From Naegleria gruberi (Eukaryota), in NCBI GenBank assembly GCA_000004985.1, contig GG738860.1: DNA of 64,000 bases. One strand, written 5' to 3'. Both the position numbers and the translations under genes were made by a program. Within the stretch, counting starts at the first letter, position 1, and every line of letters begins with the position of its first letter. Of the stretch, positions 4,723 to 64,000 are shown one piece after another. The notes beneath the pieces are model-generated. The model was not told the origin of the DNA and did not search any database. It saw only the letters and a program-made list of their open reading frames with translations.

Positions 4723-6489
4723 TTACTTTCTCTTTTTTGAAGATCTTTGAGAGTTATCTGAAGAATCGGAACTTCTCTTCTTGTCTTGTTTCGTTTTCAA
4801 TAAACCTTTGGTTGGTGAAAATGTTAAATCGACTGGTAAACTTGGAACAATATCCTTCTTATTGAAAGTTTTAACTTGATTCTTTTCGAGGTCAATTATA
4901 ACCTTCTTCTTTTCTTGTTTTTCTTCAGAAGAGGTAGCAGTACTTGTGATTGGCTTCTTGTCCTTGAGCAGCTTTTTCACGGATTTCACCTTACTTAACA
5001 ATTGATTACGTTTCTTTTCTTCAGCAGCAGCTTCTTCTCTTTCCTTTTGTTCCTTTTCTAATTGAACTTTCTTTTCTTGTTCCAATCTTTCTTGTTCTAA
5101 TTTTTCTTGCTTTTTCTTTTCCTCTTCTTCCTTCTTCTTTTGTTCGGTTGCCTTACTATTATCCTTCTTTTGTTTCTTTTCTTGTGGCGTTGTTTCTACT
5201 TTCTTTTCAGTTTGTTTCTTTTCAGGTTGTTGCTTCTTTTCTTGTGGTTTCTTATTTTCATTAACTTGTTGAGCTTTCTTTTCTTGTTGTTTCTTCTTCC
5301 TTTCAATCTTAGCTTGTTCTTTTTGAGATACAGTAGTTTCAACTTCTTCCAATTCAGAATATAAATCATCGAGAGTAATAATTCTAGTCTTGAATTTTTC
5401 ATAGTATTCAACACAGACATCCGAGTTTTCATATCCAGTCTTGTATTTTTCGAATTCCTTGACAATACGTTCGATATTGACAGGTAAAGGTCTATCTTTA
5501 ACAATTTGTCTGACATTACCAAATTCATCAAGTGGTAAATCTTCATCATCATCTTCATCATCTTCCATAGCATCTCCATTTTCTTCGGTTTCTTCCTCCT
5601 CTTCCTCTTCTTCAGGTTTACTTTCACCTTCAACTGATTGATATTGAGCAAGTAAATCGAACATTTCTTCCTTGTATGTCTTTTTGATACTGTTATTTTC
5701 TGTAGAGGCAAAATCTTTGATGAAGAATTGGACGAATTTCATCAATGCATCTTCATTGAGATGATAGTCAGAATCATTTTCAACTTGAGGACCACCATAT
5801 TGAACCAATTCCAAGAAGAATAATTCTGCAATGTGAATTTGCAAAGATGCTAATAATTTACGTTCCTCATTATTGAAAATACCATCTTCTAAAATGAATT
5901 CAATAAATTCCTCAACTGCTTCTAGTTTGTATTGAGCTGTCTTGTTCAAAAACACGAATGCTTGTTGCATTACTTTTCTCACTAACATTAAATATTTGTC
6001 CATTCTGTGTTTGTCAAGTCTTGGCCATGTTTCAAAGAGTTCATCAAAGAAAGCTCTCAAAAAGGCAATAGGTAATTCGTGTGGAGATGATTCGCCTCCC
6101 TTCACGTGGTGAATACATTCTGCCAAGAGTTGAGCCATTTCGTGTTGTTTAAATTCACCATCACACAGCCAAAATCCGTACAATGCACCTTTCCACAATT
6201 TTCTAAAATCAATAAAATTAGTATCAAGATCCAACTTGTTGAATTTAGTTTCCTTCAAAAATGTTGGGAATCTTTCGGCAGCTCTTGTTCTAAAACCTTC
6301 ATCGGTAGCAGCAAGATCCTTGGTGAGTTTTACTACATTTTCTCTATGGATTTTTAATTGTTCCTCTGTGAATGTATTTTCCTCAACTTTGGATTCCGAT
6401 TTGCTTATCTTCTTTTGTTTGTTGTTACCATTAGTGTTATTATTGGCTTGTTTATTGTTGTTGTTATTAGCTTTTGACTTTTTACCCAT
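4723..6489 (-). CDS. nucleolar rRNA-processing protein Nop52/RRP1 homolog with K/E-rich tail
   Basis: Single 588-aa ORF. The N-terminal half has Nop52-type blocks (LWKGALYGFWLCDGEFKQHEMAQLLAECIHHV, FLRAFFDELFETWPRLDKHRMDKYLMLVRKV). The C-terminal half is acidic then K/E-rich low complexity. Confidence 0.7.
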   Translation of the reverse strand: MGKKSKANNNNNKQANNNTNGNNKQKKISKSESKVEENTFTEEQLKIHRENVVKLTKDLAATDEGFRTRAAERFPTFLKETKFNKLDLDTNFIDFRKLWKGALYGFWLCDGEFKQHEMAQLLAECIHHVKGGESSPHELPIAFLRAFFDELFETWPRLDKHRMDKYLMLVRKVMQQAFVFLNKTAQYKLEAVEEFIEFILEDGIFNNEERKLLASLQIHIAELFFLELVQYGGPQVENDSDYHLNEDALMKFVQFFIKDFASTENNSIKKTYKEEMFDLLAQYQSVEGESKPEEEEEEEETEENGDAMEDDEDDDEDLPLDEFGNVRQIVKDRPLPVNIERIVKEFEKYKTGYENSDVCVEYYEKFKTRIITLDDLYSELEEVETTVSQKEQAKIERKKKQQEKKAQQVNENKKPQEKKQQPEKKQTEKKVETTPQEKKQKKDNSKATEQKKKEEEEKKKQEKLEQERLEQEKKVQLEKEQKEREEAAAEEKKRNQLLSKVKSVKKLLKDKKPITSTATSSEEKQEKKKVIIDLEKNQVKTFNKKDIVPSLPVDLTFSPTKGLLKTKQDKKRSSDSSDNSQRSSKKRK

Positions 6490-6771
6490 TTTTTATGCTC
6501 GAACATCATCAACAAATTATTGCAATAATTTTACTTCCTCATTTTTATCAAATTACTTCATCACAATAATTCTGTATCGGAATTTGTGTACTTCAACATT
6601 CACCAAAGGAAATTAGTTGAGTCTATTTGTTATTTCAATGAAACAAAATAGTAATAATAAATACATTTGTTTTCTTGTGATTGGTAGAAGCTATTAATAT
6701 CAACCAATTAAATGTTAAAGAATTCTATTCCAAAGAACACCGCATTCAATAAGAGCTGGCAATTTGCTTGA

Positions 6772-6799
6772 GCGGCAAACTTTGAAAATTAGCGCCAAA
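6772..6799. promoter_or_regulatory. two E2F-like sites (GCGGCAAA, GCGCCAAA) in the Nop52/importin-beta divergent promoter
   Basis: 6772-6779 GCGGCAAA (reverse complement TTTGCCGC) and 6792-6799 GCGCCAAA (reverse complement TTTGGCGC). Both fit TTTSSCGC. They lie 57-84 bp upstream of ATG 6856. Confidence 0.4.
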
Positions 6800-6855
6800 A
6801 AAATTGCAAAAAAAAAATAACACAACAAATAACTTTATAACCCACGAGTAAAAAG

Positions 6856-9597
6856 ATGAACATTCAGGATTTCAGAAACTTGATGGATGTGCTCTCGTCC
6901 AACGATAATCAAGTTCGTCAAAACGCTGAAACCCATCTTGCCAATCTTAAGAATAATGACTTGGTATGTTTTTCATTTAATTGTTTTTATTAATCATTTT
7001 AACGTATTTTATTCTCCTCATCACCAACAATAATTTTTCTAGCCTAAATTTATGATTCTGTTAGTAACAGAACTTGCTGATGAAGCTAGACCAAACCATC
7101 TCAGACAATTGGCCGGTCTCCAACTTAAGAACCTTTTAGAATCCAAAGACTCACAAACAAAACATGCTTTAGAACAACAATGGTCCAGACAAGACGAAGA
7201 AACCAAAAATCAAATTAGAAATCAAGTTTTAGTAACACTCCACTCCACATCACAAGAAGCTAGAAAGACTGCTGCTCAAGTCCTCGCCGAATTTGCTTCT
7301 GTAGACTTGGTGCACAATCAATGGCTGAATGTTATTGAAACTGTCCTTAAAAACATTACCGAACCTTCTACACCTTTTGGTATTCAATCTAGCTTGATGG
7401 CCATTGGTTATCTGTGTGATATGTGTAGAGCCCCAGTTTTAAAGCACCAAACAAACCAAATTCTTACAGCTGTTATTCAAGGTATGAGAGAATCAGCAAA
7501 CAACGATATCAAATTTGCTGCCACACAAGCCTTGTTGAATTGTCTTGTTTTTGTTGAAGAAAACTTTTCAAGAGATGTAAGTATTATTATTATTTGAATC
7601 TTATTAATTCTAACTTTATATAGTCTGAAAGAGATTATATTATGCAAACCGTATGTGCATCAACCCAACTTCCAGACCCAAGAATTAGAGAAGTCGCTTT
7701 TGAATGTTTAGTTAAAATCGGATATTTGTACTATGATAAATTGTCACCATACATGGAAGCCATTTTTGGTGTAAGTAGTAATACTATTTTAACAAATTGA
7801 TATTAATTTATTAAAATATAGATCACAACCAAGGCTTTAACTGACCCTAATGAACAACAAGAAGTCCAATTACAAGCTATTGAATTCTGGACATCATTGG
7901 CTGAAACTGAAGCAATTATTCGTGAAGAAATTGATACTGCAATGGAAAATGATACCGAACCAATTAGACAAAGTTTCAATATTATTCTCCAAGCTCTTGC
8001 ACCATTAGTTGAACTTATGACTAAATGTCTTACAAGACAAGAAGAATATCAAGAAGATGGTGATATGTGTGTCAGTAATTATGCTTCAAATTGTATTGCT
8101 GCTATGGCCACTGTTGCTCAAGAAACAATTGTTGACCAAATTATGCCATTCGTTTCATCAAATATTAATAATCCAGATTGGCACTTTAAGGAAGCTGCTA
8201 CTTTGGCATTTTCTGCAATTTTGGATGGTCCAAGAAGAGGTGAAAGAATGAATGAACTTATCAACTCTGCCCTTCCATTCATTATGAGTCATGTTAATGA
8301 TGCAAACACTCTTGTCAAAGATACTTCAGTTTTTGCTCTTGGTAGAATTGCTGAATTCCATCCAGATCCATTGGTTGAAAATCATTTGGAAAATGTCCTC
8401 AAGACTCTTACAATTGCCTTCCAAGATGAAGCTCGTATTTGTAGTAAGGCTTGTTGGACTATTTTGCACATTGCAGAAGCTTTCTCAACTGATGATGATA
8501 GAGCTTCTTATCCACTTTCACAATACTTTAAGATTTTGGCTGAAATGCTCTTACAAGCTACTCTTAGACAAGATGCTTCTGAAAGCAATTTGAGAATCAA
8601 TGCTTATGAAGCTTTATCTGCTCTTGTTCACAGTGCTGCTAGAGATACCTATGAAATTTTGTCACACATTGTTGTTGAATTGTTGAATAGACTTGAACAA
8701 ACTCTTAACCACAGCCAAACTGAAGAAATCTGCTTGATTCAAGGTTTGATGTGTGGTGCTCTTCAAGTTTCTGCTAGAAAGCTCGAATTTAGAATTGTTC
8801 CAACTGCTGATAGAATCATGACCTTCTTGTTGAGAATCTTTGAATCTAAAAGCGCTAATGTTCATGAAGAAGCCTTCCTTGCTGTTGGTGCTGTCGCTGC
8901 TGCCCTTTCTAATGAATTCGACAGATATATGCCTCACTTTTTACCATTCTTATTGACTGGTTTGCAAACATTCCAATACGAACAAATCTGTCTTATCTGT
9001 GTCAACGTTATTGGTGATTTATGTATTGCTTTGAGAGACAAGCTTGCTTCTTATACTGATGCAATCATGGAAGTTCTTTTGAAGAATTTGCAAAACTCTG
9101 AATTGCAAAGAGATGTCAAACCAAACATTATTGCCTCTTTTGGTGATATTGCTCTTGCCATTGGTGTCAGATTTGAAAAATACATGAATTATGTTGGTAC
9201 TGTTTTGAGACAAGCTTGTGAAGCTCATGTTGATGCCACCAACGATGAAATGATTGATTATCTTAATCTTTTGAGAGAAAATATTTTCGAAGCCTATGTT
9301 GGTATTTTACTTGGCTTCAAGAAGGAAAATCCACAACTCTTTATTCCATATGTTGAATCAGTGTTAACCTTTGTCAAGATTGTCTATGAAGATCAAAATA
9401 CTGACCAACCTGTTTTCAATGCTGCTGTTTCTATCGTTAGTGACTTGGCTAATGTTTACGGTGTTGCCATCAAAGGTCCTATGCAACAAGAATTTATTAG
9501 AAATCTTGTCGAAGATGCAGTCAATTCAGCTGAATCAGAGACAAGAAAGATTGGTAATAAGGCTAAGAAGAACTTGAAGAAGATTACTCTCCTCTAA
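6856..9597 (+). CDS. importin subunit beta (karyopherin beta-1), 4 exons
   Basis: Exons 6856-6963, 7043-7576, 7624-7770, 7822-9597, all phase 0 with GTATGT/GTAAGT donors and introns of 47-79 nt. N-terminus MNIQDFRNLMDVLSSNDNQVRQNAETHLANL... and RQLAGLQLKN, with HEAT-repeat character throughout, match importin-beta. Confidence 0.85.
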
Positions 9598-41967: not shown

Positions 41968-43026
41968 TTACAATAATTTCAAATGTTTTGTAACAGTATC
42001 AATTAATTCTACAGGAGCTGGACCAATTCCAAGTACTGTTTTCGATCCAGCTTCAATTTGAGTTCTTCCAGCATCAACAACAAGATAACAATTCAAACGT
42101 TGTTGTAAACATTTTTGAAATAAATTATCCAATTCCTTATCACTATCTGCTTTAAGACAAATCTTAGCTTCAGCTGTTACTTCCCAGTCATGTAAATATT
42201 GTTTCCATTGTTGCATATCTTGGTTGGTGATTTGTGTTGGCTCTGAATTTGATGATGAAAATAATAATTGAGTTTGAGCAAAATAGGAGGTGTTTTCATA
42301 GAGAATATTTCTATAGAGACCGACAGCTGCATGACAACATTGAGCAGCAATCTTTCCTTTACCCATATTCAAATCATTTCTAACAACAAATACCATCTTG
42401 TAAGCCTTTGATGTCGGGAATGATTTCATCAAATATTCTTGATATTTTTGATNNNNNNNNNNNNNNNNNNNNNNNNNNNNNNNNNNNNNNNNNNNNNNNN
42501 NNNNNNNNNNNNNNNNNNNNNNNNNNNNNNNNNNNNNNNNNNNNNNNNNNNNNNNNNNNNNNNNNNNNNNNNNNNNNNNNNNNNNNNNNNNNNNNNNNNN
42601 NNNNNNNNNNNNNNNNNNNNNNNNNNNNNNNNNNNNNNNNNNNNNNNNNNNNNNNNNNNNNNNNNNNNNNNNNNNNNNNNNNNNNNNNNNNNNNNNNNNN
42701 NNNNNNNNNNNNNNNNNNNNNNNNNNNNNNNNNNNNNNNNNNNNNNNNNNNNNNNNNNNNNNNNNNNNNNNNNNNNNNNNNNNNNNNNNNNNNNNNNNNN
42801 NNNNNNNNNNNNNNNNNNNNNNNNNNNNNNNNNNNNNNNNNNNNNNNNNNNNNNNNNNNNNNNNNNNNNNNNNNNNNNNNNNNNNNNNNNNNNNNNNNNN
42901 NNNNNNNNNNNNNNNNNNNNNNNNNNNNNNNNNNNNNNNNNNNTGTGTTCTTGTGATGACATTTTTTAATGAGTTGGAATTATTTTGAAAATAATCACAT
43001 GAGGAATAAATTGCAGAATTGAACAT
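41968..43026 (-). CDS. PTRH2: peptidyl-tRNA hydrolase 2 (PTH2/PTRH2), interrupted by an assembly gap
   Basis: C-terminal domain YKMVFVVRNDLNMGKGKIAAQCCHAAVG...YLVVDAGRTQIEAGSKTVLGIGPAPVELIDTVTKHLKLL*. N-terminal exon from ATG 43026 (MFNSAIYSS...). The middle lies in 491 N. Confidence 0.85.
   Translation of the reverse strand: MFNSAIYSSCDYFQNNSNSLKNVITRTXXXXXXXXXXXXXXXXXXXXXXXXXXXXXXXXXXXXXXXXXXXXXXXXXXXXXXXXXXXXXXXXXXXXXXXXXXXXXXXXXXXXXXXXXXXXXXXXXXXXXXXXXXXXXXXXXXXXXXXXXXXXXXXXXXXXXXXXXXXXXXXXXXXXXXXXXXXXXXXXXXXXXQKYQEYLMKSFPTSKAYKMVFVVRNDLNMGKGKIAAQCCHAAVGLYRNILYENTSYFAQTQLLFSSSNSEPTQITNQDMQQWKQYLHDWEVTAEAKICLKADSDKELDNLFQKCLQQRLNCYLVVDAGRTQIEAGSKTVLGIGPAPVELIDTVTKHLKLL
42453..42943. other. 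assembly gap (491 N)
   Basis: A run of n characters inside the PTH2 gene. Confidence 1.
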
Positions 43027-43296
43027 CAATCTCGAGCCAATAAATTCACAAACAATTAAGAACTCTCCAATTAGACTTTAGATAGTTAAGGGATTGTTGA
43101 CGGAAGAGAATTTCATGTTTTATAGTTAGTATTTATAGAAATTAATAACAATAATAATTTGTACTTCACAACAGGAAAGTTGAAGAAACAATAATTTTCA
43201 AGTGGAAACTTTACAATTTCTTTCATCAAGAGGATTATCCAATCAATCAATTATTGAAATAAAAAAAAATTCAAATCACCCAGATCTTCTTTGAAC

Positions 43297-45741
43297 ATGG
43301 CCAGAACCAAGCAAACAGCGAGAAAATCGACGGGTGGCAAAGCTCCAAGAAAACAATTGGCTTACAAAGCTAGAAAAGCAAACAGACCTTTCCCTTCCCG
43401 TTCGTTGGCAGGTCCTTTTTCTGATGAGGAAAAAGCAATTTTTGTGAATGGTTTGAAAAGAGCCTTCGATGGAAGTGAAGAATCATCAAAATTTGATGTA
43501 AATACCTATGAAGGAGCTTCACAATTAGTCAAATTTTGGATTTTCCAAGATCAAAAAAGAAGAAAATTGAAACCAATGGTAGAGGAAGCTAAATGGAATG
43601 GCAGCTTTGAATTGCTTCACAATCTTCCTATGGATATCAAGTATGAAATTATTGATTTTATTCCAACCTTTTCCTTGAGAGATTTTTACAAAATCAAGTT
43701 AGACGAATTCACTGAACAGATGAAGCTGGCACAAGTTGAAGATATTTCTAAAATTGTATGCAAAGGACTGAATTTGTTTGAAACCTTTACAAAGAGATCT
43801 TTTCAAAATTTGTACTATTCAGATCCTCTCTATAGAAACTATTACAAGAAGAGACTAATTAACAGAGAATATGCATTAAGAATGAAACAAAGGATATTGA
43901 AGTTGGATGAGTTTGATATTACAGATATTGATTATGATATTGGTTCTGTAAAGAAAGACAAACTATTGCACTTCTTTTCGTTGGTTAAGGAGATGAATGA
44001 AATTGACACTGTTGACTTTAATGATGTGGTCATTCACAGAAATATTGAAAAAATCAAGTCATTGGTAAATGGAACCACCACAAAAAGAAATGAAGATGAT
44101 TACGAGTCACCTTGTGAAGAACCAATGGATGATACTGATTCAATTAGTAATGAGCCTAATGTAACTGTATCATTTGATGAAATGGAGCTACTTTCTGAGG
44201 AAGAAATGAAAAAGTTAGAATCAAAATCTATTGCCATACTGCAGGAATCAGAAAGAGGATATTATAATACTCGTAATTACAATAAGTTTAACAAGCAAGA
44301 TAGTAAATCTTTTAGAAAGCAAGCGATGTATTCGTATGCTATACCATTGGAACTAATAGGAACTGGTGCTATTCCACAAGAACAAAATTTTACTCGTGCC
44401 TTTTCTCACGAAGAGATTATGGAAAGGCTTAAGGAGTTTATTGGAATTAATTCATCCATTAAGAAACTTTCTGTCAGAGGTCTAGATGTCGGCTTTACAA
44501 ACACTGCCATGGACATCTGTAAAGGAATAACAGATCTTTCAATACTTTTATGTGAGTACGTGGATTATTTTGAGTGCTTTAAAGAAGTCCTACCAAATCT
44601 CAACAAGCTGACTATTAATGGAGTTTCTTCTCATTACTCAATTAGTTTTATGGAAAGCTTTATGATTGAGGAATATATTCAACCTAACTGTGTTGTTGAT
44701 TTAGGGTTTGCTACAGGCACTGACACATATTTCTCGGATTTTTTAAATCGTTATGTTGAAGATCAAAACGGTAACAAGACTCCATTGAAAATTACCTCAA
44801 AACTACTCTCAACTGAAAACGTAACCGAATATGCCGACTTTTTATTGAGGTTTATAGAAGGAGTATCTTTCGGCCAATTGTTTTCTGATTTTGATATGAA
44901 AAAGAAATTGGTAGATTACTTGGTAATTGAAGTTGGCATTCCAATTGAATGGCTTACGCTTACCACAAGTGGAGATACTATAATTACAGAATACTTAGCT
45001 TATCTTTCAAATGTTTATCAAAATGGGGCAATTAATTGTCCAAGCTCTATTATGTTACGAGCAGGCTTGATTCCAAATAATATAGCCAATGAATTGGTTT
45101 TTTCTAAATATGAATGGGATGTTGTTGAGTTATGTTTAGATTATTTAAAAAAGAGAGATGATATTGATGACTTTGTTTTGACCCTTAGAAATTTGCTCGT
45201 TTTCTATGTGTGTGATAGAAGTGATTCTCCACTCTTTGAACTATATTGTTACATTAAGAAGAATATTCCAGAAAGTCAATTCAAAGAAATTTTAAAGCCT
45301 ATCAAATGTATCATTCCAGAAGGCTACAAAGAAAAGAACAATGAAACCTTGCATACAGTTTCTATTCCCATCATTTGCTTCCCATTCTCAAATTACCAAT
45401 TCGCTAAAGCTATCGTGGATGATATGACAGACGAAGATTTGAAATTTGTTAATGAGCTTGGTGACTCATGTCTGCACATTTATTCTAGACATGACCATAG
45501 TATTTGGAGTAGAATAGTTGAAAGAGTACCAGAGGTAGTCAAACTCAGCAACCCTGAGGGAGTAACACCTTTACATATTCATACTACCAATATCCAGTCA
45601 TACATATTTGTATTAGACTTGTTGACAAGATTTGGTGCTGACCCAAATGCAAAAGATATTGAAGGAAGAAAAGCTATTGGTGAATTTTTTATATTTGAGA
45701 ATGGTATTTTGAAAGTTAACAACAGATCAATGGAATATTAG
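43297..45741 (+). CDS. non-histone protein with a histone-H3 N-terminal tail, F-box-like motif and C-terminal ankyrin repeats
   Basis: ATG 43297 gives MARTKQTARKSTGGKAPRKQLAYKARKA..., identical to H3 residues 1-21. An uninterrupted 814-aa ORF follows with no histone fold. LPMDIKYEIIDFIPTFSLRDFYKI lies at 43624-43695. ANK-like GVTPLHIH...LLTRFGADPNAKDIEGRKAI lies at 45460-45678. Confidence 0.75.
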   Translation: MARTKQTARKSTGGKAPRKQLAYKARKANRPFPSRSLAGPFSDEEKAIFVNGLKRAFDGSEESSKFDVNTYEGASQLVKFWIFQDQKRRKLKPMVEEAKWNGSFELLHNLPMDIKYEIIDFIPTFSLRDFYKIKLDEFTEQMKLAQVEDISKIVCKGLNLFETFTKRSFQNLYYSDPLYRNYYKKRLINREYALRMKQRILKLDEFDITDIDYDIGSVKKDKLLHFFSLVKEMNEIDTVDFNDVVIHRNIEKIKSLVNGTTTKRNEDDYESPCEEPMDDTDSISNEPNVTVSFDEMELLSEEEMKKLESKSIAILQESERGYYNTRNYNKFNKQDSKSFRKQAMYSYAIPLELIGTGAIPQEQNFTRAFSHEEIMERLKEFIGINSSIKKLSVRGLDVGFTNTAMDICKGITDLSILLCEYVDYFECFKEVLPNLNKLTINGVSSHYSISFMESFMIEEYIQPNCVVDLGFATGTDTYFSDFLNRYVEDQNGNKTPLKITSKLLSTENVTEYADFLLRFIEGVSFGQLFSDFDMKKKLVDYLVIEVGIPIEWLTLTTSGDTIITEYLAYLSNVYQNGAINCPSSIMLRAGLIPNNIANELVFSKYEWDVVELCLDYLKKRDDIDDFVLTLRNLLVFYVCDRSDSPLFELYCYIKKNIPESQFKEILKPIKCIIPEGYKEKNNETLHTVSIPIICFPFSNYQFAKAIVDDMTDEDLKFVNELGDSCLHIYSRHDHSIWSRIVERVPEVVKLSNPEGVTPLHIHTTNIQSYIFVLDLLTRFGADPNAKDIEGRKAIGEFFIFENGILKVNNRSMEY

Positions 45742-50049: not shown

Positions 50050-52470
50050 ATGGATGCCCGTGTTGCAGTAACGAAAGGTACGTTAAGAGAGAGATGAATT
50101 TAAGAATATTAAGGCCTCTGTTCATACATCATCAATATAATACCATTTTAATATCGGACTTGAATAAATAGATGATTTTGAGTATGGACAAATATTGGGT
50201 GAAGGTGCTTTTGGCCAAGTTCGTTTGTGTGTCCATAAAGCAACAGAACTTCAATACGCAGCTAAAGTATTGAAGAAGGAAAAACTTATTAAGGCCAAAC
50301 AAACGAAATATGTCAAATCAGAGAAGGAAATATTATTGGAGATGGATCATCCTAACATTTCAAAATTGTGTTATACCTTCACTGATGAAAAGAAGTTGTA
50401 CTTTGTGTTGGAACTTATTTCTGGAGGAGAATTATTTGAGTGTATTATAAAGAGCAATGTAGCAAATGATAATAAGGAATTGAAAAAAGTTGCTCAATTT
50501 TACATGGCTCAAATGTTGGAAGCACTGATCTATATTCACAGTCTTAATATTTGTCACAGAGATCTTAAACCCGAAAATCTAATGCTTACAGGATCTGGTA
50601 ATTTAAAATTGGTGGATTTTGGTATTGCAAAGAAAATTGATAGACCAGGTCCGAATACATTCTGGTAAGTTAAAATATGAAAATCTTGAAAATCTTAATT
50701 TCCAATAGTGGTACTGCTGAATATTTGGCGTAAGTTTTCTTATCAACTTGATTATATTGATGATTTCTCAATAGACCCGAAGTTGTCAGTAATAATGAAT
50801 ATGGTATTATGGTAGATTGGTGGTCTTATGGTTGTATTATTTACGAATTATTTTGTGGAAAGAGTCCTTTTTACAGCTCTAGTATGGCTGTAACTTGTCA
50901 AAAGATTGTTGATAGAGACATCTATTGGCCAAAGACAATGCCACCAGATGCCAAGGATTTAATTAATGGACTTCTCACTACAGACCCAGAAAAGAGAATT
51001 GGAGGTCCTGAATTAAGAAAGCATCCATTTTTCAAAGGAATTGATTGGAAGAATTTAAACAAGGCTGACCCACCTCTGGTTCCAGATCTTTTGTTCAATG
51101 ATGAAGATAGAGGTGTTGGTATTAAAATGTCCATGTTTGAACCTAGAGTGGATCAGGAAGACGTCATGATAAATGCTCACGTTTTCAAATCGAGATCAAG
51201 CAGTAAAGGATCAACGCAAGATGCAATCAAGAGAAGCAACTTGCTCAGAAAAATGTACCCTCAATTGTGTGCTCTCCCAGAGAGACCAAGACCAATCAAT
51301 TCAAGAATTATTCAAAACTCTGAAAATGTTCCAAAATCCAATGATAAGGTAGAAGAGGAGGAGGTAGATGATAGGGGTGATACTCAATCGGAATGTACTA
51401 GTGTCAATGAGGTCAGTAAGAAGGTCGTTATGATTCAAAATGCTGTCGGTTTGAAAACTCCTGTTATCAGGATTGCATTTGGAGAAGGTGACAAGATGGC
51501 TTGTAGTAGTAGTTTCCAAGCAAAAACATTTGGAATTGGAATTGACAGTGAATCTAATGTCATTTTCAATGAATATAAGAATTTATCAACTGTATCCACA
51601 TGTAATTACTTGGAATATTCTCCAAATGGTGAAACACTTGCCTTCGACATGCAAAGACATATTGGTTTGTTGGACTTGAAGAATCCAAAGAAAAAACCAA
51701 GACAATTGGTGGGGCATTCCCTTCCAATTACAAAGGTTTCTTGGCATCCAAAGAGCCACATGTTGGCTGCCGGAGGAAGAGATAACCTGGTGTACTTGTG
51801 GAATGTTGACAGCTCCAAACCAAAGCTTGAGGCTCAAATGGATTCACACAAATCATATATTTCAGATCTTCAATTCCATGCAAAAGATCATCTACTTGCC
51901 AGTGGAAGTGGAGATTTCAAAGTTGTATTCTACGACATTCAAAGTCAGAGAATTGTACAAAAGTACAGTTACCATGAAGATGCAATTCTTGGTGTGAGGT
52001 GGAATCCTAAATTCCCTGACATTTTTGTTTCCTGGTCTTTGGATAGAAGACTAATCTTCTCCGACCGCAGAACTTTCAAACCTATTAAGGTTCTAGCTCA
52101 TAATAGACCTGTGATTCATGCTCAATGGTCACCTGATGGATCAATGCTTGCCACCTGCAGCAAAGATTCCATTAGAATTTGGTCCTATCCATCAATTACC
52201 TCCTCTTTCGTCTACACCAATTCTGAAAGTCTTCCTGGTGAACATCTCTCTTTCGAATGTAATAGCAATTATTTGGCAGTATTGAAATGCAGAGATGATA
52301 CCTCTCCTTCAGTCATTGATACCTCTTCCTTTTCTTTTGTTTCTCCAAATCCACATCCTCAAAACTCACACAAACTCCCAATTACTAGTCTGCAATGGAG
52401 TAATAACAGACCATTCCTTGCCACTGGTTCCTATGATAAGTCTGTTATTTTGTGGGGTGTTGATGAATAA
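50050..52470 (+). CDS. AGC-family Ser/Thr protein kinase fused to a C-terminal WD40 propeller, 4 exons including a 21-nt microexon
   Basis: Exons 50050-50077, 50172-50664, 50709-50729, 50775-52470, all GTAAGT/GTACGT..AG with consistent phases. Kinase motifs: GEGAFGQV, AAK, HRDLKPENL, DFG, TFCGTAEYLAPEV (spliced across the microexon), DWWSYG, HPFFKGIDW. WD repeats follow in the C-terminal ~330 aa (LASGSGDFKVVFYD, LATCSKDSIRIWS, LATGSYDKSVILWG). Confidence 0.8.
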
Positions 52471-59286: not shown

Positions 59287-60600
59287 TTAAAAGGTTTTTG
59301 GAGTTAATTCTTCATCATCTTCCTCAGCACTTGCTTTCTTCTTCTTTTTCTTGGAGGCTTTCTTCTTTTTGGTGCTTGTAGATGCTGGGGGTTGAATAGC
59401 AAGAGAAGACCATTCATCACCTTGCACTTCTACAGTTTCGTGAAGTTGCTCTTGAGGTGATGTTGGAGAATCTGTAGGTGCTACAACAGGTGTTGTTATG
59501 TCTGTAGTGATGATGGCTTCACTTTCAGTGGTTATTGATTGTTCTTCTGTTGTTGTTGGAAGGGTTGGAACACTATCTGTTGGATCCATACTTGGTGCTT
59601 CTTGTTGCTCTGGAATTGTTGTGGATGTTAATAATTCATTTGTTGTGCATTGAATAGTTGGAGATGATTCCTCTGTTTTAGCTTCTTCTTGTGGAGTGAC
59701 AGGTTGTTGTGTTTCTTCTTCTTCTTGAATTGCTACTGGTTGTTCTGCTTCTACTTGTTGTTTTGGTTCATCCAGGATGAGTGGAGTAGAATTGGCCACT
59801 GTCAGAATGGTATTGTTCTTACCACTGACACTTCCATTATTACTTGATTGTCCACTCTTATTAGAGACATTGGCAACACTAGCAGTGGTACTCTTATTTG
59901 AAGCAGTGGCAACTTGTGCTTCGGAAGTTGTTGATTTTGATGAAGAAATGGCAGCTACTGTTGAATCTGTTACATTTGAAGGAGGATTTGATGTTGGTTG
60001 TACTGGGGAGGAAACAGCTGGAGTTGTTGCAGTGTGGAGTGATGAAATTGGTTGTTGAGGTTGTGTGGTAATGTTTGAAGGACGTGGTTGTTTTCTTGCT
60101 CCTTGTTGTTGAGTGTTTAGTTGTTGTACAAGTGGCACACTCACAAAATGGTTTTTCAATATCCGAATACTGTCTGAGAATATCCAAGGTGTGTTTGTGT
60201 TTATAGATTTACAGGCTAAGATCGCATAGTCGGCATCATAGATCTTTTCATTTACTTTCTTTGTTTTTAACATGTTCTGTTATTGTACAATAATATTTCC
60301 AATATTTTAATATAATATATAATTATTATTATAAAATAGATTATTGTTCAATAAAAGATTAATCCACAACAAACTTCCTACCTTTTGTTCAACCATCATT
60401 GGTACCTTTGTTCTTACGTGCTCCACAATTCTATACATTCCTACACTCGGTTCATTCATGATGTGATGAATATTCGAACTCCAAATATCACATAAATTTA
60501 AAACTGATTGTTTGGTATCAAGATCAAGAAAACGATCCGTAGAATCAGCAAGGGTTGGCACTGATCCCTTGTAGATTTCTCCTCTTGGTTGTCCTCTCAT
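59287..60600 (-). CDS. BORCS8/MEF2BNB-like protein with a long T/S/P/Q-rich extension, 2 exons
   Basis: Exons 60600-60382 and 60276-59287 with a 105-nt GTAGGA..CAG intron in phase 0. MNEPSVGMYRIVEHVRTKVPMMVEQK parallels human BORCS8 ANEPSVALYRLQEHVRRSLPELAQHK. IYDADYAILACKS parallels IYTVEYACSAVKN. Confidence 0.55.
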
Positions 60601-60699: not shown

Positions 60700-63399
60700 T
60701 TACAAGATAACACAACCACCTCCTCCACCTCCACTGCTACTGGGTCTTGGGATGTTATTAATTTGAGTTCGGAGGTCTTGATTTTGTCTGGTTAGTTCAT
60801 CGAATTTTCTTTGAAATAATTCCTCCTGATTAGAATATTTGGAATGTATTTGAGCAACTTGGGAAGAGTATTCTTTCTTAATTTCTGTTTCTTTTTTGTC
60901 CCATTCCAATTTGAAATGGTTGAGGTCTTGTTCATGAGCTTGTTGCTGCTCTATTAAGGTATGTAAATGTTTTTCATTTTGCAGTTTCATATCTTCTAGT
61001 TCTTGTAAACGAGTAAGTTGTTCTGATTCGAGTTTGGTAATTTCAAGCCTTTGTTGTTCTTGTTCTAACATTTGTATTACCTTTTCGGATTCGTAATCCT
61101 GTAATTTGGATAAATAGTTAGCACATTCGACAGTTAAATTCTCAATATCTTGCAAAAGGTAAGTTCTAACTTGCTCTCTACCTGGACCTTTGCATTGAGC
61201 TTCGAATTGTTTCATTTGTCTTTCAGCCTCTTTCTCTAAATCTTGAACTGTGGCATCGTGGGTTAAAGCTCTAATAAAGAGTGATATATTTTGTTTCATT
61301 TCGGATCGTACTTGCTCGCACAACCTAACAGATTTGTCCATATTGTTACTTTCTATTTGGGATCTCTCTTTTTTAATTAATTCAAACAACTTGTCAGAAT
61401 ATTCTCTCAATATCTTTTCATCTTTTTCAAACATGGAGTCTCTGTTGAATATGTCAAGAATTGTTGCCCATGTTTTTGTGTGTTGTTTACGGATTTCACA
61501 AATTTCATAAATACTGTTACTGTTCAAATGTTTCTTCATTTCCCTTTCGTATAAATTTACACATTTTTCAATTGTCTTATTGTAGGTATTTTCAATTACC
61601 ATTGTAAATTTGTCCTCAATATTAGGAATCATTCCATGTGTTTTAATGGTTTTCAAATATAATAATATTAAAGTAACATAGCGAGTTCCATCTAATAAAC
61701 CTCCATTCATATTTTGTTTTGGTTTAATATTGGATGGAACGAAACTGTTAACAAAAGTAGACATTTCCTTAATGAAGTTAGCATTCAGTAAATGTTCTAC
61801 GTATGGAATATCAGGAACACAACCTGTAGCAGGTGCTTCCATATGATATGTATCAAAAGTTTCAAAAGATTCAATTACTTTTTTTCTTGAATCATTGTTG
61901 CAAACCTTATTCAAAATAAAGGAGGTAAGAGTCTTAAATTCAGCTGGTATATTCAATTTGAAATCTCTGAACAACCAAATACATCTTGGTTTCATATAAC
62001 TATTGCACTCCGTATTGTTTTGATTGGATGATTTCAATTGAATGTTTTGAGTGAATCTGGTGGTAATTTCAAGTGTCTCCATACTACTTGCTGTAGGACA
62101 AGTTGTGGTATTATAAATAAACAGAGATGATAGTAATACACTTAGAATCATAATGTGATTATCATCAGAAGCGTTAGCAGATGCTGCATCAACACCTTCA
62201 GTGTCTATCAATAAAACTTTCAATTTCTGATTGCCGTAGACCATTTCAATTGGCTCTGACCATATCCAAATTCCAAATGTTTTAGCTTCTACTGTGTGTC
62301 CTAAATGAAAGCTATCTGCAGGAACATTATCACCAACTAATCTACTAAGAGAGTATGATTTACCTTCCCTTGTTCTTCCAGCAAGTACAATTGCTCCAAT
62401 AGGCTCCTTGATATTTTTGATTATGTCAAGAGCTTGTTTCTGGAAGATTAAACCCTCTCTACGTCCGTTCTCTGATAACAGAATGTATTGACCATTGGGA
62501 GTGACCACCATATTTTTAGGAAGTAAGAGAGGAATTGCTTTACCGTGGAGTTTAACAACTTGAAAAGCAGGGTTTTGGGATGAGTTGTCTCCAGCAAATA
62601 CTAAAAGACCCCAATCGCCAAAATAATCCACGTTAACAACAATATTGTTTTCCATACAGAGGTAAATACTTTGATTTGTTGTAATATTTTCTCCAACATG
62701 ACATTGTCCATAAATGGTAAAGGTAGCATAATTTTTTTGATAATAGCCATTCTCAACTTCAAATCTATTAACATTTGGTGAAAGTACTAACTTTCTATGG
62801 ACTCTTGAAGAATAGATAAATACTGTATCTCCAGATTTAACAATACCATCTTTTGATTGATCATTAGCATTTACAAAATACAGTAGATCGTTTTCAGCAG
62901 AAAAGTGAGGGAGAGCTACTAATACATTTTGCTCCTTCAATCCCACATATAGATTGGTATTTGAGTTCATGATGGCTACTGGCTCTTTGTAAAATAAATT
63001 AGTATCTTTACACTTTTCAACAAATGGATCAAATATGCTATCTGAAACTAAATCAGGGTCTGCTTCCATTTCTTTAAGAATATCCTTTGAAGAGTTTGGT
63101 ACTTTGGAATCATTATCTATGGGTTGATCAAAGTCCATGTCAAGATAACTGAATGATTCGGCCAAATCTTCGAGACTATCATTAATAGCTTTTCTTTCTG
63201 AAGTATGAATGAAAGTGTAATATTCAATGGCGTCTTCAAGATGACCCATGCTATTTTGGATGGCTTCAAACACTAAATTCAAATCCGACAAATCCATTTC
63301 TATCATTCTCCAGAATGTTGAGGTGGCTAAATCGCAAGCTTCTTTTCCATACTCCTCAAAGTGTTTCTCGATTTTATCCAATACTGTGTGGTGATCCAT
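60700..63399 (-). CDS. guanylate-binding-protein (GBP)-type large GTPase with N-terminal extension, coiled-coil tail and CaaX box
   Basis: GBP signatures: PIGAIVLAGRTREGKSYSLSRLVG (P-loop), TFGIWIW, LLIDTEGV, LSVLLSSLFIYN, WLFRDFKL. About 285 aa of unassigned N-terminal sequence. C-terminal coiled coil ending GGGGGGCVIL* (CaaX with X=L). Confidence 0.8.
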   Translation of the reverse strand: MDHHTVLDKIEKHFEEYGKEACDLATSTFWRMIEMDLSDLNLVFEAIQNSMGHLEDAIEYYTFIHTSERKAINDSLEDLAESFSYLDMDFDQPIDNDSKVPNSSKDILKEMEADPDLVSDSIFDPFVEKCKDTNLFYKEPVAIMNSNTNLYVGLKEQNVLVALPHFSAENDLLYFVNANDQSKDGIVKSGDTVFIYSSRVHRKLVLSPNVNRFEVENGYYQKNYATFTIYGQCHVGENITTNQSIYLCMENNIVVNVDYFGDWGLLVFAGDNSSQNPAFQVVKLHGKAIPLLLPKNMVVTPNGQYILLSENGRREGLIFQKQALDIIKNIKEPIGAIVLAGRTREGKSYSLSRLVGDNVPADSFHLGHTVEAKTFGIWIWSEPIEMVYGNQKLKVLLIDTEGVDAASANASDDNHIMILSVLLSSLFIYNTTTCPTASSMETLEITTRFTQNIQLKSSNQNNTECNSYMKPRCIWLFRDFKLNIPAEFKTLTSFILNKVCNNDSRKKVIESFETFDTYHMEAPATGCVPDIPYVEHLLNANFIKEMSTFVNSFVPSNIKPKQNMNGGLLDGTRYVTLILLYLKTIKTHGMIPNIEDKFTMVIENTYNKTIEKCVNLYEREMKKHLNSNSIYEICEIRKQHTKTWATILDIFNRDSMFEKDEKILREYSDKLFELIKKERSQIESNNMDKSVRLCEQVRSEMKQNISLFIRALTHDATVQDLEKEAERQMKQFEAQCKGPGREQVRTYLLQDIENLTVECANYLSKLQDYESEKVIQMLEQEQQRLEITKLESEQLTRLQELEDMKLQNEKHLHTLIEQQQAHEQDLNHFKLEWDKKETEIKKEYSSQVAQIHSKYSNQEELFQRKFDELTRQNQDLRTQINNIPRPSSSGGGGGGCVIL

Positions 63400-63482
63400 C
63401 TAAATAGTTTTTTGTTGTTGGGTTGAAAAATTCTAAATTGTTTTCTCTTTTAAATTGCAAGCACCATCCGTTTTAATCAACA

Positions 63483-63559
63483 AAACGTGATTGTAGACTC
63501 AAATAAGTAACACTCATCACGTTTTACTAAACGAACAATACAACAGGGCGATCACGTTT
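63483..63559. promoter_or_regulatory. three copies of ATCACGTTT (one inverted) upstream of the GBP gene
   Basis: AAACGTGAT at 63483-63491 (inverted), ATCACGTTT at 63516-63524 and ATCACGTTT at 63551-63559. They lie 84-160 bp upstream of ATG 63399. The two direct copies are 35 bp apart. Confidence 0.4.
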
Positions 63560-63625
63560 CAGCATTTTTTAATATTTTTATTATTTTCAATTTTAAATTA
63601 AATGTGTTTAAATAATTATATTTAT

Positions 63626-64000
63626 TTACAAAATATTACAAAAACCAGATGATCTATTATTCATATTTGCAAGACTACTGGTTAGATTAGAAATTTGTCT
63701 TGAACTATCAGCAGATTGTTGTTGTAAAACATTAATCATTTGAGTCATTCTTTGTTCGGATTGAGCTTGCTGTTGAGTAAACATTTGATTCATATTTTGG
63801 AGATTTTCCTTATGTTCAAAGAGGAGTCTTTCTTGGAGTTCTTGCATTTTCTTCTTTTCATCATTTGATGCAGCAAGCATTTCTTTTTGGAATTCTTTGA
63901 TTTTGTCCATTGTTTCCTTGTATAATTCTTCTTTGGCTTTTTCAGATTGTTCGAGGTTTTCTAATTGCTGTCTGACTTTTGCAGTTTCTTGTTGGATGGC
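63626..64000 (-). CDS. 3' part of a coiled-coil protein ending in a CaaX box (gene continues beyond the window)
   Basis: The frame is open from the window edge to stop 63626. Q/E/K-rich heptad-like sequence ends ...NRSSGFCNIL*. This resembles the tail of the neighbouring GBP gene. Confidence 0.6.
   Translation of the reverse strand, partial: AIQQETAKVRQQLENLEQSEKAKEELYKETMDKIKEFQKEMLAASNDEKKKMQELQERLLFEHKENLQNMNQMFTQQQAQSEQRMTQMINVLQQQSADSSRQISNLTSSLANMNNRSSGFCNIL

Follow-up and report, generated by a model that had tools for sequence, protein, structure and literature searches.

A GBP-family GTPase gene of Naegleria gruberi with an added N-terminal module and a conserved CaaX end

In the cell-autonomous immunity of vertebrates GBPs act as central effectors, and to our knowledge almost nothing is known of their roles outside animals. 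A gene of the amoeba Naegleria gruberi raises the question of whether a GBP of the prenylated vertebrate layout can occur in such a host, and what a long additional sequence at its N-terminus may do there. The gene lies in a stretch of 64,000 nucleotides of contig GG738860.1 (assembly GCA_000004985.1), which was analysed as a whole and is called the window below. Positions 60700..63399 of its minus strand hold one uninterrupted reading frame of 899 codons, with an in-frame TAG immediately 5' of M1. The translation is identical (100% identity over the full length) to NAEGRDRAFT_65980 (EFC46141.1, XP_002678885.1, UniProt D2VAU4). This protein is encoded on a 536,960-bp N. gruberi scaffold and was deposited as an uncharacterised 'predicted protein', the deposited model being already annotated with precomputed GBP Pfam domains. 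An earlier reading of the window, made from its letters alone (the sequence-only reading), had claimed an 899-residue frame with a GBP core, about 285 residues of unassigned N-terminal sequence and a CaaX end, GGGGGGCVIL, with X = L. Each of these was found again: the motifs GRTREGKS, DTEG and WLFRDF are at their places and the GBP family of Pfam scores above its cutoff, the N-terminal part has no Pfam match and belongs to the continuous frame, and the CaaX box stands at the C-terminus and has a counterpart (CTIQ) in an orthologue. That reading missed two things, namely that the gene was already a deposited model and that the first 65 residues are predicted to be UBA-like. The features of the gene are as follows.

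60700..63399, minus strand: whole gene, GBP-family GTPase of 899 residues, single exon, stop codon at 60700-60702 (Pfam GBP and GBP_C)
63205..63399, minus strand: residues 1-65, predicted small four-helix UBA-like bundle (AlphaFold2 (AF2) model)
62986..63204, minus strand: residues 66-138, acidic linker rich in D and S (composition; AF2 confidence score, pLDDT, <50)
63043-63108, minus strand: residues 98-119, SKVxN..KDILxExExxPxLxS (columns invariant between N. gruberi and the metagenome orthologue)
62545..62985, minus strand: residues 139-285, all-beta domain; probable beta-trefoil with MIR or ricin-B-like topology (low-confidence model)
61705..62544, minus strand: residues 286-565, GBP large GTPase (LG) domain (Pfam PF02263; aligns to human GBP1)
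62356-62379, minus strand: residues 341-348, P-loop GRTREGKS (read in the sequence)
62278-62280, minus strand: switch I T374 (read in the sequence)
62194-62205, minus strand: residues 399-402, DTEG (read in the sequence)
61960-61977, minus strand: residues 475-480, WLFRDF with the RD motif R478-D479 (read in the sequence)
60820..61698, minus strand: residues 568-860, GBP C-terminal helical domain, equivalent to middle domain plus GED (Pfam PF02841)
60703..60819, minus strand: residues 861-899, C-terminal tail with QINNxPRPSS, a linker of six Gly and the CaaX box CVIL (sequence; conserved in the orthologue)
60703-60714, minus strand: residues 896-899, CaaX box CVIL (read in the sequence)

The GBP body and its proposed action

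The part of the protein that follows the N-terminal module resembles GBPs from end to end. PF02263 (GBP) matches residues 317-493 with 110.6 bits against a curated cutoff of 21.1 (E 9.5e-32), and PF02841 (GBP_C) matches residues 568-860 with 39 bits against a curated cutoff of 24.3 (E 8.3e-10). When residues 287-899 (613 residues) were compared with PDB sequences by phmmer, human GBP1 (hGBP1) was aligned over residues 18-583 of its 592 with E 4e-30. The matches to GBP1, GBP2 and GBP5 range from E 1e-30 to 1e-22, whereas atlastins were matched at 1e-5 to 1e-4 and over about 95 residues only. In an alignment of 41 diverse GBPs, R344, G346, S348, T374, D399, E401, G402, R478 and D479 are invariant, and K347 is kept in at least 90%. 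R344, G346 and S348 belong to the P-loop with the GBP arginine finger, D399, E401 and G402 to switch II, and R478-D479 form the RD motif of guanine specificity. The GTPase is predicted to be catalytically competent. The 899-residue sequence shows no hydrophobic segment, no signal peptide and no transmembrane segment. An identity as an atlastin/RHD3 protein was considered and rejected: the matches to atlastins fall short of those to GBPs by 25 orders of magnitude, a transmembrane hairpin is lacking, and the C-terminus is a soluble coiled coil with a CaaX box. We judge from the alignments that residues 286-899 are a complete GBP, a unit of the hGBP1 type. Because this unit has nearly the length of hGBP1, the 285 residues in front of it are a genuine extension and not GBP-fold sequence that has been displaced.

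The order of LG domain, helical middle/GED part and CaaX box is that of human GBP1, GBP2 and GBP5 (PDB 1DG3, 7E58 and 7E59), with 614 residues here versus 592. The arginine-finger P-loop, the switch I Thr, DxEG and RD of the human proteins are all kept, while the identity to vertebrate GBPs in the aligned LG domain is about 27%. Two differences from vertebrate GBPs stand out, the extra 285-residue module and the absence of a polybasic patch before the CaaX box. In addition, human GBPs are interferon-inducible, whereas the N. gruberi host has no interferon system. The same architecture recurs in a 904-residue orthologue from a metagenome, P0002, which is collinear with the N. gruberi protein from residue 9 to the C-terminus (33% identity, E 1e-177). 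Both the module at the N-terminus and the junction GKAIPLLLP are there, and so is a CaaX box, which is CTIQ (farnesyl type) instead of CVIL.

Other protist GBPs are built on the same principle, in that the GBP core is joined to a module for membrane or ligand binding, to a CaaX box, or to both. Some metagenome GBPs have a PX domain at the C-terminus, others an EF-hand plus C2 at the N-terminus, and CaaX-like ends are found in a GBP of Phytophthora palmivora (CVIQ) and a metagenome group (C[NSI]IF); together these are P0015, P0038, P0046, P0062, P0049 and P0057-P0060. The accessory domains of these proteins are PX or C2, and none has a UBA-like part with a beta-rich module. The PX and EF-hand plus C2 fusions make the joining of a targeting module to a GBP core a recurring theme, and from their sequences accessory membrane-targeting devices on GBP cores seem widespread outside animals. 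The plant GBPLs have no CaaX box and bear disordered extensions or transmembrane helices instead (PMC12489281), and Dictyostelium Gnbp combines a signal peptide with a transmembrane domain and has no helical domain (PMC8565484). In layout the N. gruberi protein is much nearer to the vertebrate GBPs than either.

We think it fairly probable that the protein is a cytosolic, prenyl-anchored GBP of the dynamin superfamily which its N-terminal module targets, likely to phagosomes or pathogen compartments. When human GBPs bind GTP, their LG domains dimerise, the prenyl group is freed and the proteins can polymerise on membranes (PMC9005921, PMC11746146). By the route of human GBP1, GBP2 and GBP5, GTP binding to the N. 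gruberi protein would lead to dimerisation or oligomerisation through the LG domains, exposure of the prenyl anchor and assembly on a membrane. The N-terminal module would pick this membrane, its UBA-like part by binding a ubiquitin-like protein tag, its trefoil by binding a glycan or a lipid head group, or both together. Of all parts of the protein, the module is by position and fold type the one most likely to serve in targeting or sensing. The likeliest targets in this bacterivorous amoeba would be its phagosomes or compartments that contain pathogens. Prenylation, GTP-driven membrane assembly, N-terminal ligand binding and a defence role are what we infer by analogy with the human proteins. 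Some observations speak against this proposal. The polybasic patch that aids hGBP1 in binding bacteria is absent from the tail, ...PRPSSSGGGGGGCVIL. The genes downstream are housekeeping genes (BORCS8-like, MMS19, methionyl-tRNA synthetase (MetRS), an OYE-type flavin oxidoreductase and WD40 proteins), and surroundings of the BORCS8, MMS19 and MetRS kind give no hint of defence. The literature searched holds no paper on GBPs in Naegleria or other heteroloboseans and none that cites the NAEGRDRAFT_65980 identifiers.

The alternative that survives best, although we regard it as doubtful, is a housekeeping membrane-remodelling GTPase. The protein would then be a prenyl-anchored GBP/atlastin-like tether or scaffold in ordinary endomembrane dynamics, at the endoplasmic reticulum (ER), a Golgi-like compartment, the contractile vacuole or maturing phagosomes, and its N-terminal module an adaptor to the trafficking machinery, not a microbial or damage sensor. 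Atlastins are the closest relatives of GBPs, plant GBPL2 is an atlastin-like protein located at the ER and tonoplast (PMC12489281), and macropinosomes carry Dictyostelium Gnbp (PMC8565484), the roles of non-vertebrate GBPs being non-immune or unknown. The housekeeping character of the flanking genes, one of which encodes a lysosome-positioning BORC subunit, fits as well, and the cytosolic trefoils of MIR type (RyR, IP3R and CFAP161) are not immune lectins. However, the match to the immune-type architecture of GBP1, GBP2 and GBP5 runs from end to end, CaaX box included, and there is no transmembrane hairpin. Moreover, the paralogues are divergent and clustered and the orthologues share 33% identity, a pattern that reviews tie to defence GBPs (PMC6400534) and that is suggestive only. 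The hGBP1-like architecture, the clustering of paralogues and the fast divergence lead us to favour slightly a role of the prenyl-anchored GBP in defence or surveillance, which we put forward tentatively.

The upstream gene and the heterolobosean GBP cluster

A second gene of the same strand ends shortly before the GBP gene begins.

63400..63625, no strand: intergenic spacer of 226 bp, from the stop codon of the neighbour to the start codon of the GBP gene
63626..64000, minus strand: tail of the upstream gene, last 124 codons plus stop, ending in GFCNIL (frame open to the window edge)

The sequence-only reading had described this gene as running from 63626 to beyond 64000 with a coiled coil and CNIL at its end, and had suggested a tandem pair or array of prenylated GBP-like proteins. 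The first part agrees with what is seen: the frame is open through base 64000 for 124 codons (the listing of open reading frames (ORFs) starts it at an internal ATG, 63910), and a coiled-coil-like tail is followed by GFCNIL. We take CNIL to be the tetrapeptide with which hGBP2 ends.

The suggestion of an array gains support from the locus of the orthologue. The contigs that carry P0002 (ENA ERZ27315067 and JGI 3300002220) contain three GBP genes within 8 kb. The first, here called A-type, encodes the 904-residue orthologue. The B-type protein has 715 residues (L001:3196-5343 of the ENA contig, minus strand) and a hydrophobic C-terminal segment without a CaaX box. The C-type protein has 868 residues (L001:5595-8201, plus strand), matches GBP and GBP_C, and ends in ...SSSISNMDRGGCIIL. 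Their order is A, B (on the reverse strand) and C, while in N. gruberi a C-like gene lies directly upstream of A; thus one of the two further GBPs of the cluster matches the N. gruberi neighbour, and the gene order is not the same. Over their whole length the 124 residues of the neighbour align with the final 120 of the 868-residue C-type GBP at 32% identity (E 5e-13). A weaker match (E 0.018) was obtained with a Willaertia magna GBP of 821 residues that ends in GFCTIL (P0064). In shuffling tests the z-scores were 17.4 for the 868-residue GBP and 10.0 for the Willaertia protein, versus 1.6-5.6 for other GBP tails, including that of the adjacent A-type. Generic coiled-coil similarity is ruled out by these scores as the cause of the match. 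The C-terminal part of the neighbour thus shows specific homology to GBPs with a CaaX end from two other heteroloboseans.

We consider it very probable, judging from these alignments, that the neighbour is a C-type heterolobosean GBP with about 750 residues beyond the window. It is less comfortable for this assignment that the neighbour is seen only as 124 C-terminal codons, its GTPase region lying beyond the window, that its tail matches nothing in a database of 5.8 billion proteins, and that the 868-residue C-type GBP as query retrieved proteins of Willaertia and N. fowleri and none of N. gruberi. The word-indexed protein search also missed a known GBP of N. fowleri (P0066), so that its silence is weak evidence. 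The neighbour may be absent from the N. gruberi annotation, mis-modelled, or a remnant. From the same facts one could argue that it is not a GBP at all but an unrelated short coiled-coil CaaX protein, or the C-terminus of a truncated or pseudogenised GBP, with no tandem pair in N. gruberi: the visible part is short, it is unmatched in the large database, and a full-length gene model may not exist there. We find this unlikely, given a frame that stays open as far as the window edge, the specific match, from end to end, with the tails of two full-length GBPs that have a CaaX box, an orthologous locus in a related organism that is a GBP cluster, and the little weight of a search that also passed over the N. 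fowleri protein.

In a crude neighbour-joining tree of the LG domain, made without bootstrap, the heterolobosean A, B and C types group apart from vertebrate, plant and oomycete GBPs. This suggests a lineage-specific expansion of the heterolobosean GBPs, the genes of which are arranged in small clusters.

The other members of the cluster have features of their own. The B-type GBPs (715 residues, and 771 residues in Willaertia magna P0065) share a conserved C-terminal segment, ..LLTCG..A..F.SP.L......G.F.., which suggests that a membrane-inserted or tail-anchored GBP is encoded between two genes of CaaX type. In the C-type GBPs a low-complexity region rich in Q, N and P precedes the LG domain (about 230 residues in the protein of contig L001 and about 170 in Willaertia P0064). 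It recalls the disordered regions of condensate-forming plant GBPLs, and the N. gruberi neighbour may have the same region outside the window. The C-type gene is one ORF in the ENA contig (L001:5553-8201) and is split in the JGI contig (L002:6381-6869 and 6866-9016, spanning 6381-9016). The split indicates a frameshift in the low-complexity region, whether by assembly error, strain variation or incipient pseudogenisation.

The CaaX tail and the N-terminal module

The 899-residue protein ends in ...SSSGGGGGGCVIL, that is, in GGGGGGCVIL. A CaaX box with X = L is a substrate of geranylgeranyltransferase I (GGTase-I), and one with X = Q is of the farnesyl type. Since CVIL has X = L, these processing rules predict that the tail is geranylgeranylated. 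Of the human proteins, GBP2 and GBP5 carry a geranylgeranyl group and GBP1 a farnesyl group, CaaX prenylation being the anchor of all three (PMC9005921); the N. gruberi box would be of the GBP2/GBP5 type (PMC9005921). The orthologue P0002 ends in ...PRPSSGGSRGFCTIQ, so that its box is CTIQ and both the tail and the Cys are conserved. The C-type proteins end in CNIL (the neighbour in the window), CIIL (the metagenome) and CTIL (Willaertia magna). The Cys at -4 is thus common to both A-type orthologues and all three C-type proteins, and a conserved flexible Gly-rich linker stands before each.

One may ask whether CVIL is a fortuitous or non-functional look-alike of a CaaX box on a soluble protein. 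The X residue differs between the orthologues (L versus Q), and CVIL is accompanied neither by a polybasic stretch nor by a second lipidation signal. Nevertheless, the retention of the Cys behind a Gly-rich linker in five proteins (CVIL, CTIQ, CNIL, CIIL and CTIL) is hard to reconcile with chance. CaaX-type ends also recur elsewhere in protist GBPs, as CVIQ in Phytophthora and as C[NSI]IF in a metagenome group, and none was found among the plant GBPs in the hit list, in agreement with PMC12489281. Such ends are rare in the window, occurring in 3 of 211 stop-to-stop open frames of at least 60 codons (about 1%). Two of the three are the GBP and the adjoining gene; the third, at about 34793 on the plus strand, does not look like a gene by ORF reading. 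Among the 28 frames of at least 200 codons, the 899-codon GBP alone has a C-a-a-X end. A fortuitous or non-functional CVIL is therefore very improbable in our estimate, and a prenylated tail remains the preferred reading.

Is the N-terminal part a genuine piece of this protein? Its 285 codons contain no stop in frame, although the sequence has 34% GC and its other two frames have 15 and 31 stops. Between N. gruberi and P0002 the module is about 26-29% identical and the junction GKAIPLLLP is invariant. No useful Pfam family was found in residues 1-285 at E <= 10, and the acidic linker of residues 66-138 is weakly conserved and probably disordered; these two facts are all that would favour a separate gene or an annotation artefact joined by ORF read-through, and that possibility, which the sequence-only reading had itself raised as a mis-merged gene, is hardly tenable and in effect ruled out by the collinear orthologue with the same fusion at 33% identity, the stop-free frame with a TAG directly before M1, the match to the deposited model and the want of any internal gene boundary signal. 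The alignment with P0002 and the reading frame lead us to regard the 285 residues as real coding sequence fused to the GBP. So far the module is present only in the N. gruberi protein and in one heterolobosean-like metagenome orthologue. A phmmer search with residues 1-290 of 1.84 billion representative proteins returned the query alone; even P0002 fell under the significance level, so the search is silent on other Naegleria species. No further locus with the module was confirmed in metagenome and viral scans, of which one metagenome scan used low-complexity patterns and was uninformative.

AF2 was run on residues 1-300 with a two-sequence alignment (N. gruberi and P0002). The model is confident solely for residues 1 to about 65 (pLDDT 79-92), with helices at 3-17, 19-34, 40-49 and from 54 onward. 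This part is predicted to be a separate helical domain with a UBA-like fold. The top structural matches of the model of residues 95-300 are beta-trefoils (of MIR, ricin-B or fascin type), all scores being weak and the model of low confidence. The fold of these matches is that of the MIR domains of RyR, IP3R and Pmt, of the ricin-B cytoplasmic lectins and of fascin. Two sequence results point in this direction too without reaching significance: the two-sequence profile matched only the RyR1 beta-trefoil domain B in the PDB (E about 1.1), and the orthologue has a Pfam MIR match at E 0.16. Overall, we hold a beta-trefoil for residues 139-285 to be probable.

A number of results count against these fold assignments. 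UBA-like folds often do not bind ubiquitin. Pfam, UBA and CUE families included, gave no family for residues 1-100 at E <= 10, a PDB profile search with the UBA-like region gave only non-significant, unrelated matches, and the UBAP1 SOUBA and classical UBA/CUE domains are 11-17% identical to residues 1-65, with no match at the sequence level. The AF2 model of residues 95-300 failed (mean pLDDT 36), and Foldseek with the model of the module returned no significant match. The single N-terminal sequences matched nothing in the PDB. The N. gruberi sequence has no Pfam match, and no significant MIR, Ricin_B or fascin match was found in the beta-rich region, which also lacks QxW motifs. A three-fold repeat signal is weak: in Smith-Waterman comparisons with shuffles, R1 versus R3 gave p=0.01, and R1 versus R2 and R2 versus R3 were not significant. 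The low-confidence guess of the sequence-only reading that the beta-rich stretch is a lectin or beta-trefoil-like domain thus draws moderate support from the fold of the top model matches and is not proven, its sequence hits being non-significant. Likewise AlphaFold, which had been proposed as a check, gave a confident helical, UBA-like answer for residues 1-65 and failed for residues 95-300.

If both folds are taken at face value, a bolder proposal can be made, which we rate as improbable. In it the protein would be a 'pattern-recognition GBP', in which the trefoil would act as a cytosolic sensor of lectin or lipid-head-group type, the UBA-like bundle would read ubiquitin-type tags on vacuoles that are damaged or hold pathogens, and the geranylgeranylated, GTP-driven GBP coat would be recruited directly. 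One protein would then do what mammals split among ubiquitin, galectin and adaptor systems.

Setting of the locus and significance

Nothing at the locus points to a mobile element or to viral insertion. Directly downstream of the GBP gene is the BORCS8-like gene (BLOC-one-related complex subunit 8; window 59287-60600, minus strand). It appears as two ORFs (60600-60307 and 60273-59287), probably because of a short intron, and the second runs into a long tail rich in S, T, P and Q. Farther away in the window, the G+C content is 0.242 at 42001-44000 as compared with about 0.34 elsewhere. Within 50195-52470 on the plus strand, an ORF of 553 residues contains the last approximately 85 positions of the Pfam Pkinase profile followed by WD40 repeats. 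The rest of the kinase domain must be in an upstream exon, which may be the ORF 50195-50668, and the region would then be an intron-containing kinase-WD40 fusion gene.

GBPs are older than interferon, are found in protists and amoebae, and make up families with clustered members (PMC6400534, citing Shenoy et al. 2012). Since protist GBPs are established (PMC6400534), a GBP in Naegleria is not surprising. Reviews treat CaaX anchoring for vertebrate GBPs only, and plant GBPs are said to lack a CaaX box (PMC9005921, PMC12489281). The module of a UBA-like part with a probable beta-trefoil, the conserved CaaX box of heterolobosean GBPs, and the cluster of A, B and C types are not described in the literature searched. 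What we report is a new domain combination within the known GBP family and not a new kind of system. Its value is limited in that the functional statements and prenylation are drawn from analogy, the trefoil assignment is weak, and the gene had already been deposited with recognisable GBP domains.

Within these limits, Heterolobosea are seen to possess a GBP with the complete layout of hGBP1 and a conserved CaaX box, and a CaaX-type end is present in an oomycete GBP too. The GBP core can carry a dedicated N-terminal module with predicted tag- or ligand-reader folds (UBA-like and probably beta-trefoil), and heterolobosean GBP genes occur in small clusters of paralogues, as those of animals do. 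Were the improbable pattern-recognition proposal true, the clustered A, B and C types would be an interferon-independent array for cell-autonomous defence in Discoba, and prenylated defence GBPs would be either as old as the deepest eukaryotic splits or convergent. The locus is a concrete candidate for asking whether membrane-targeted defence by GBPs is ancestral.

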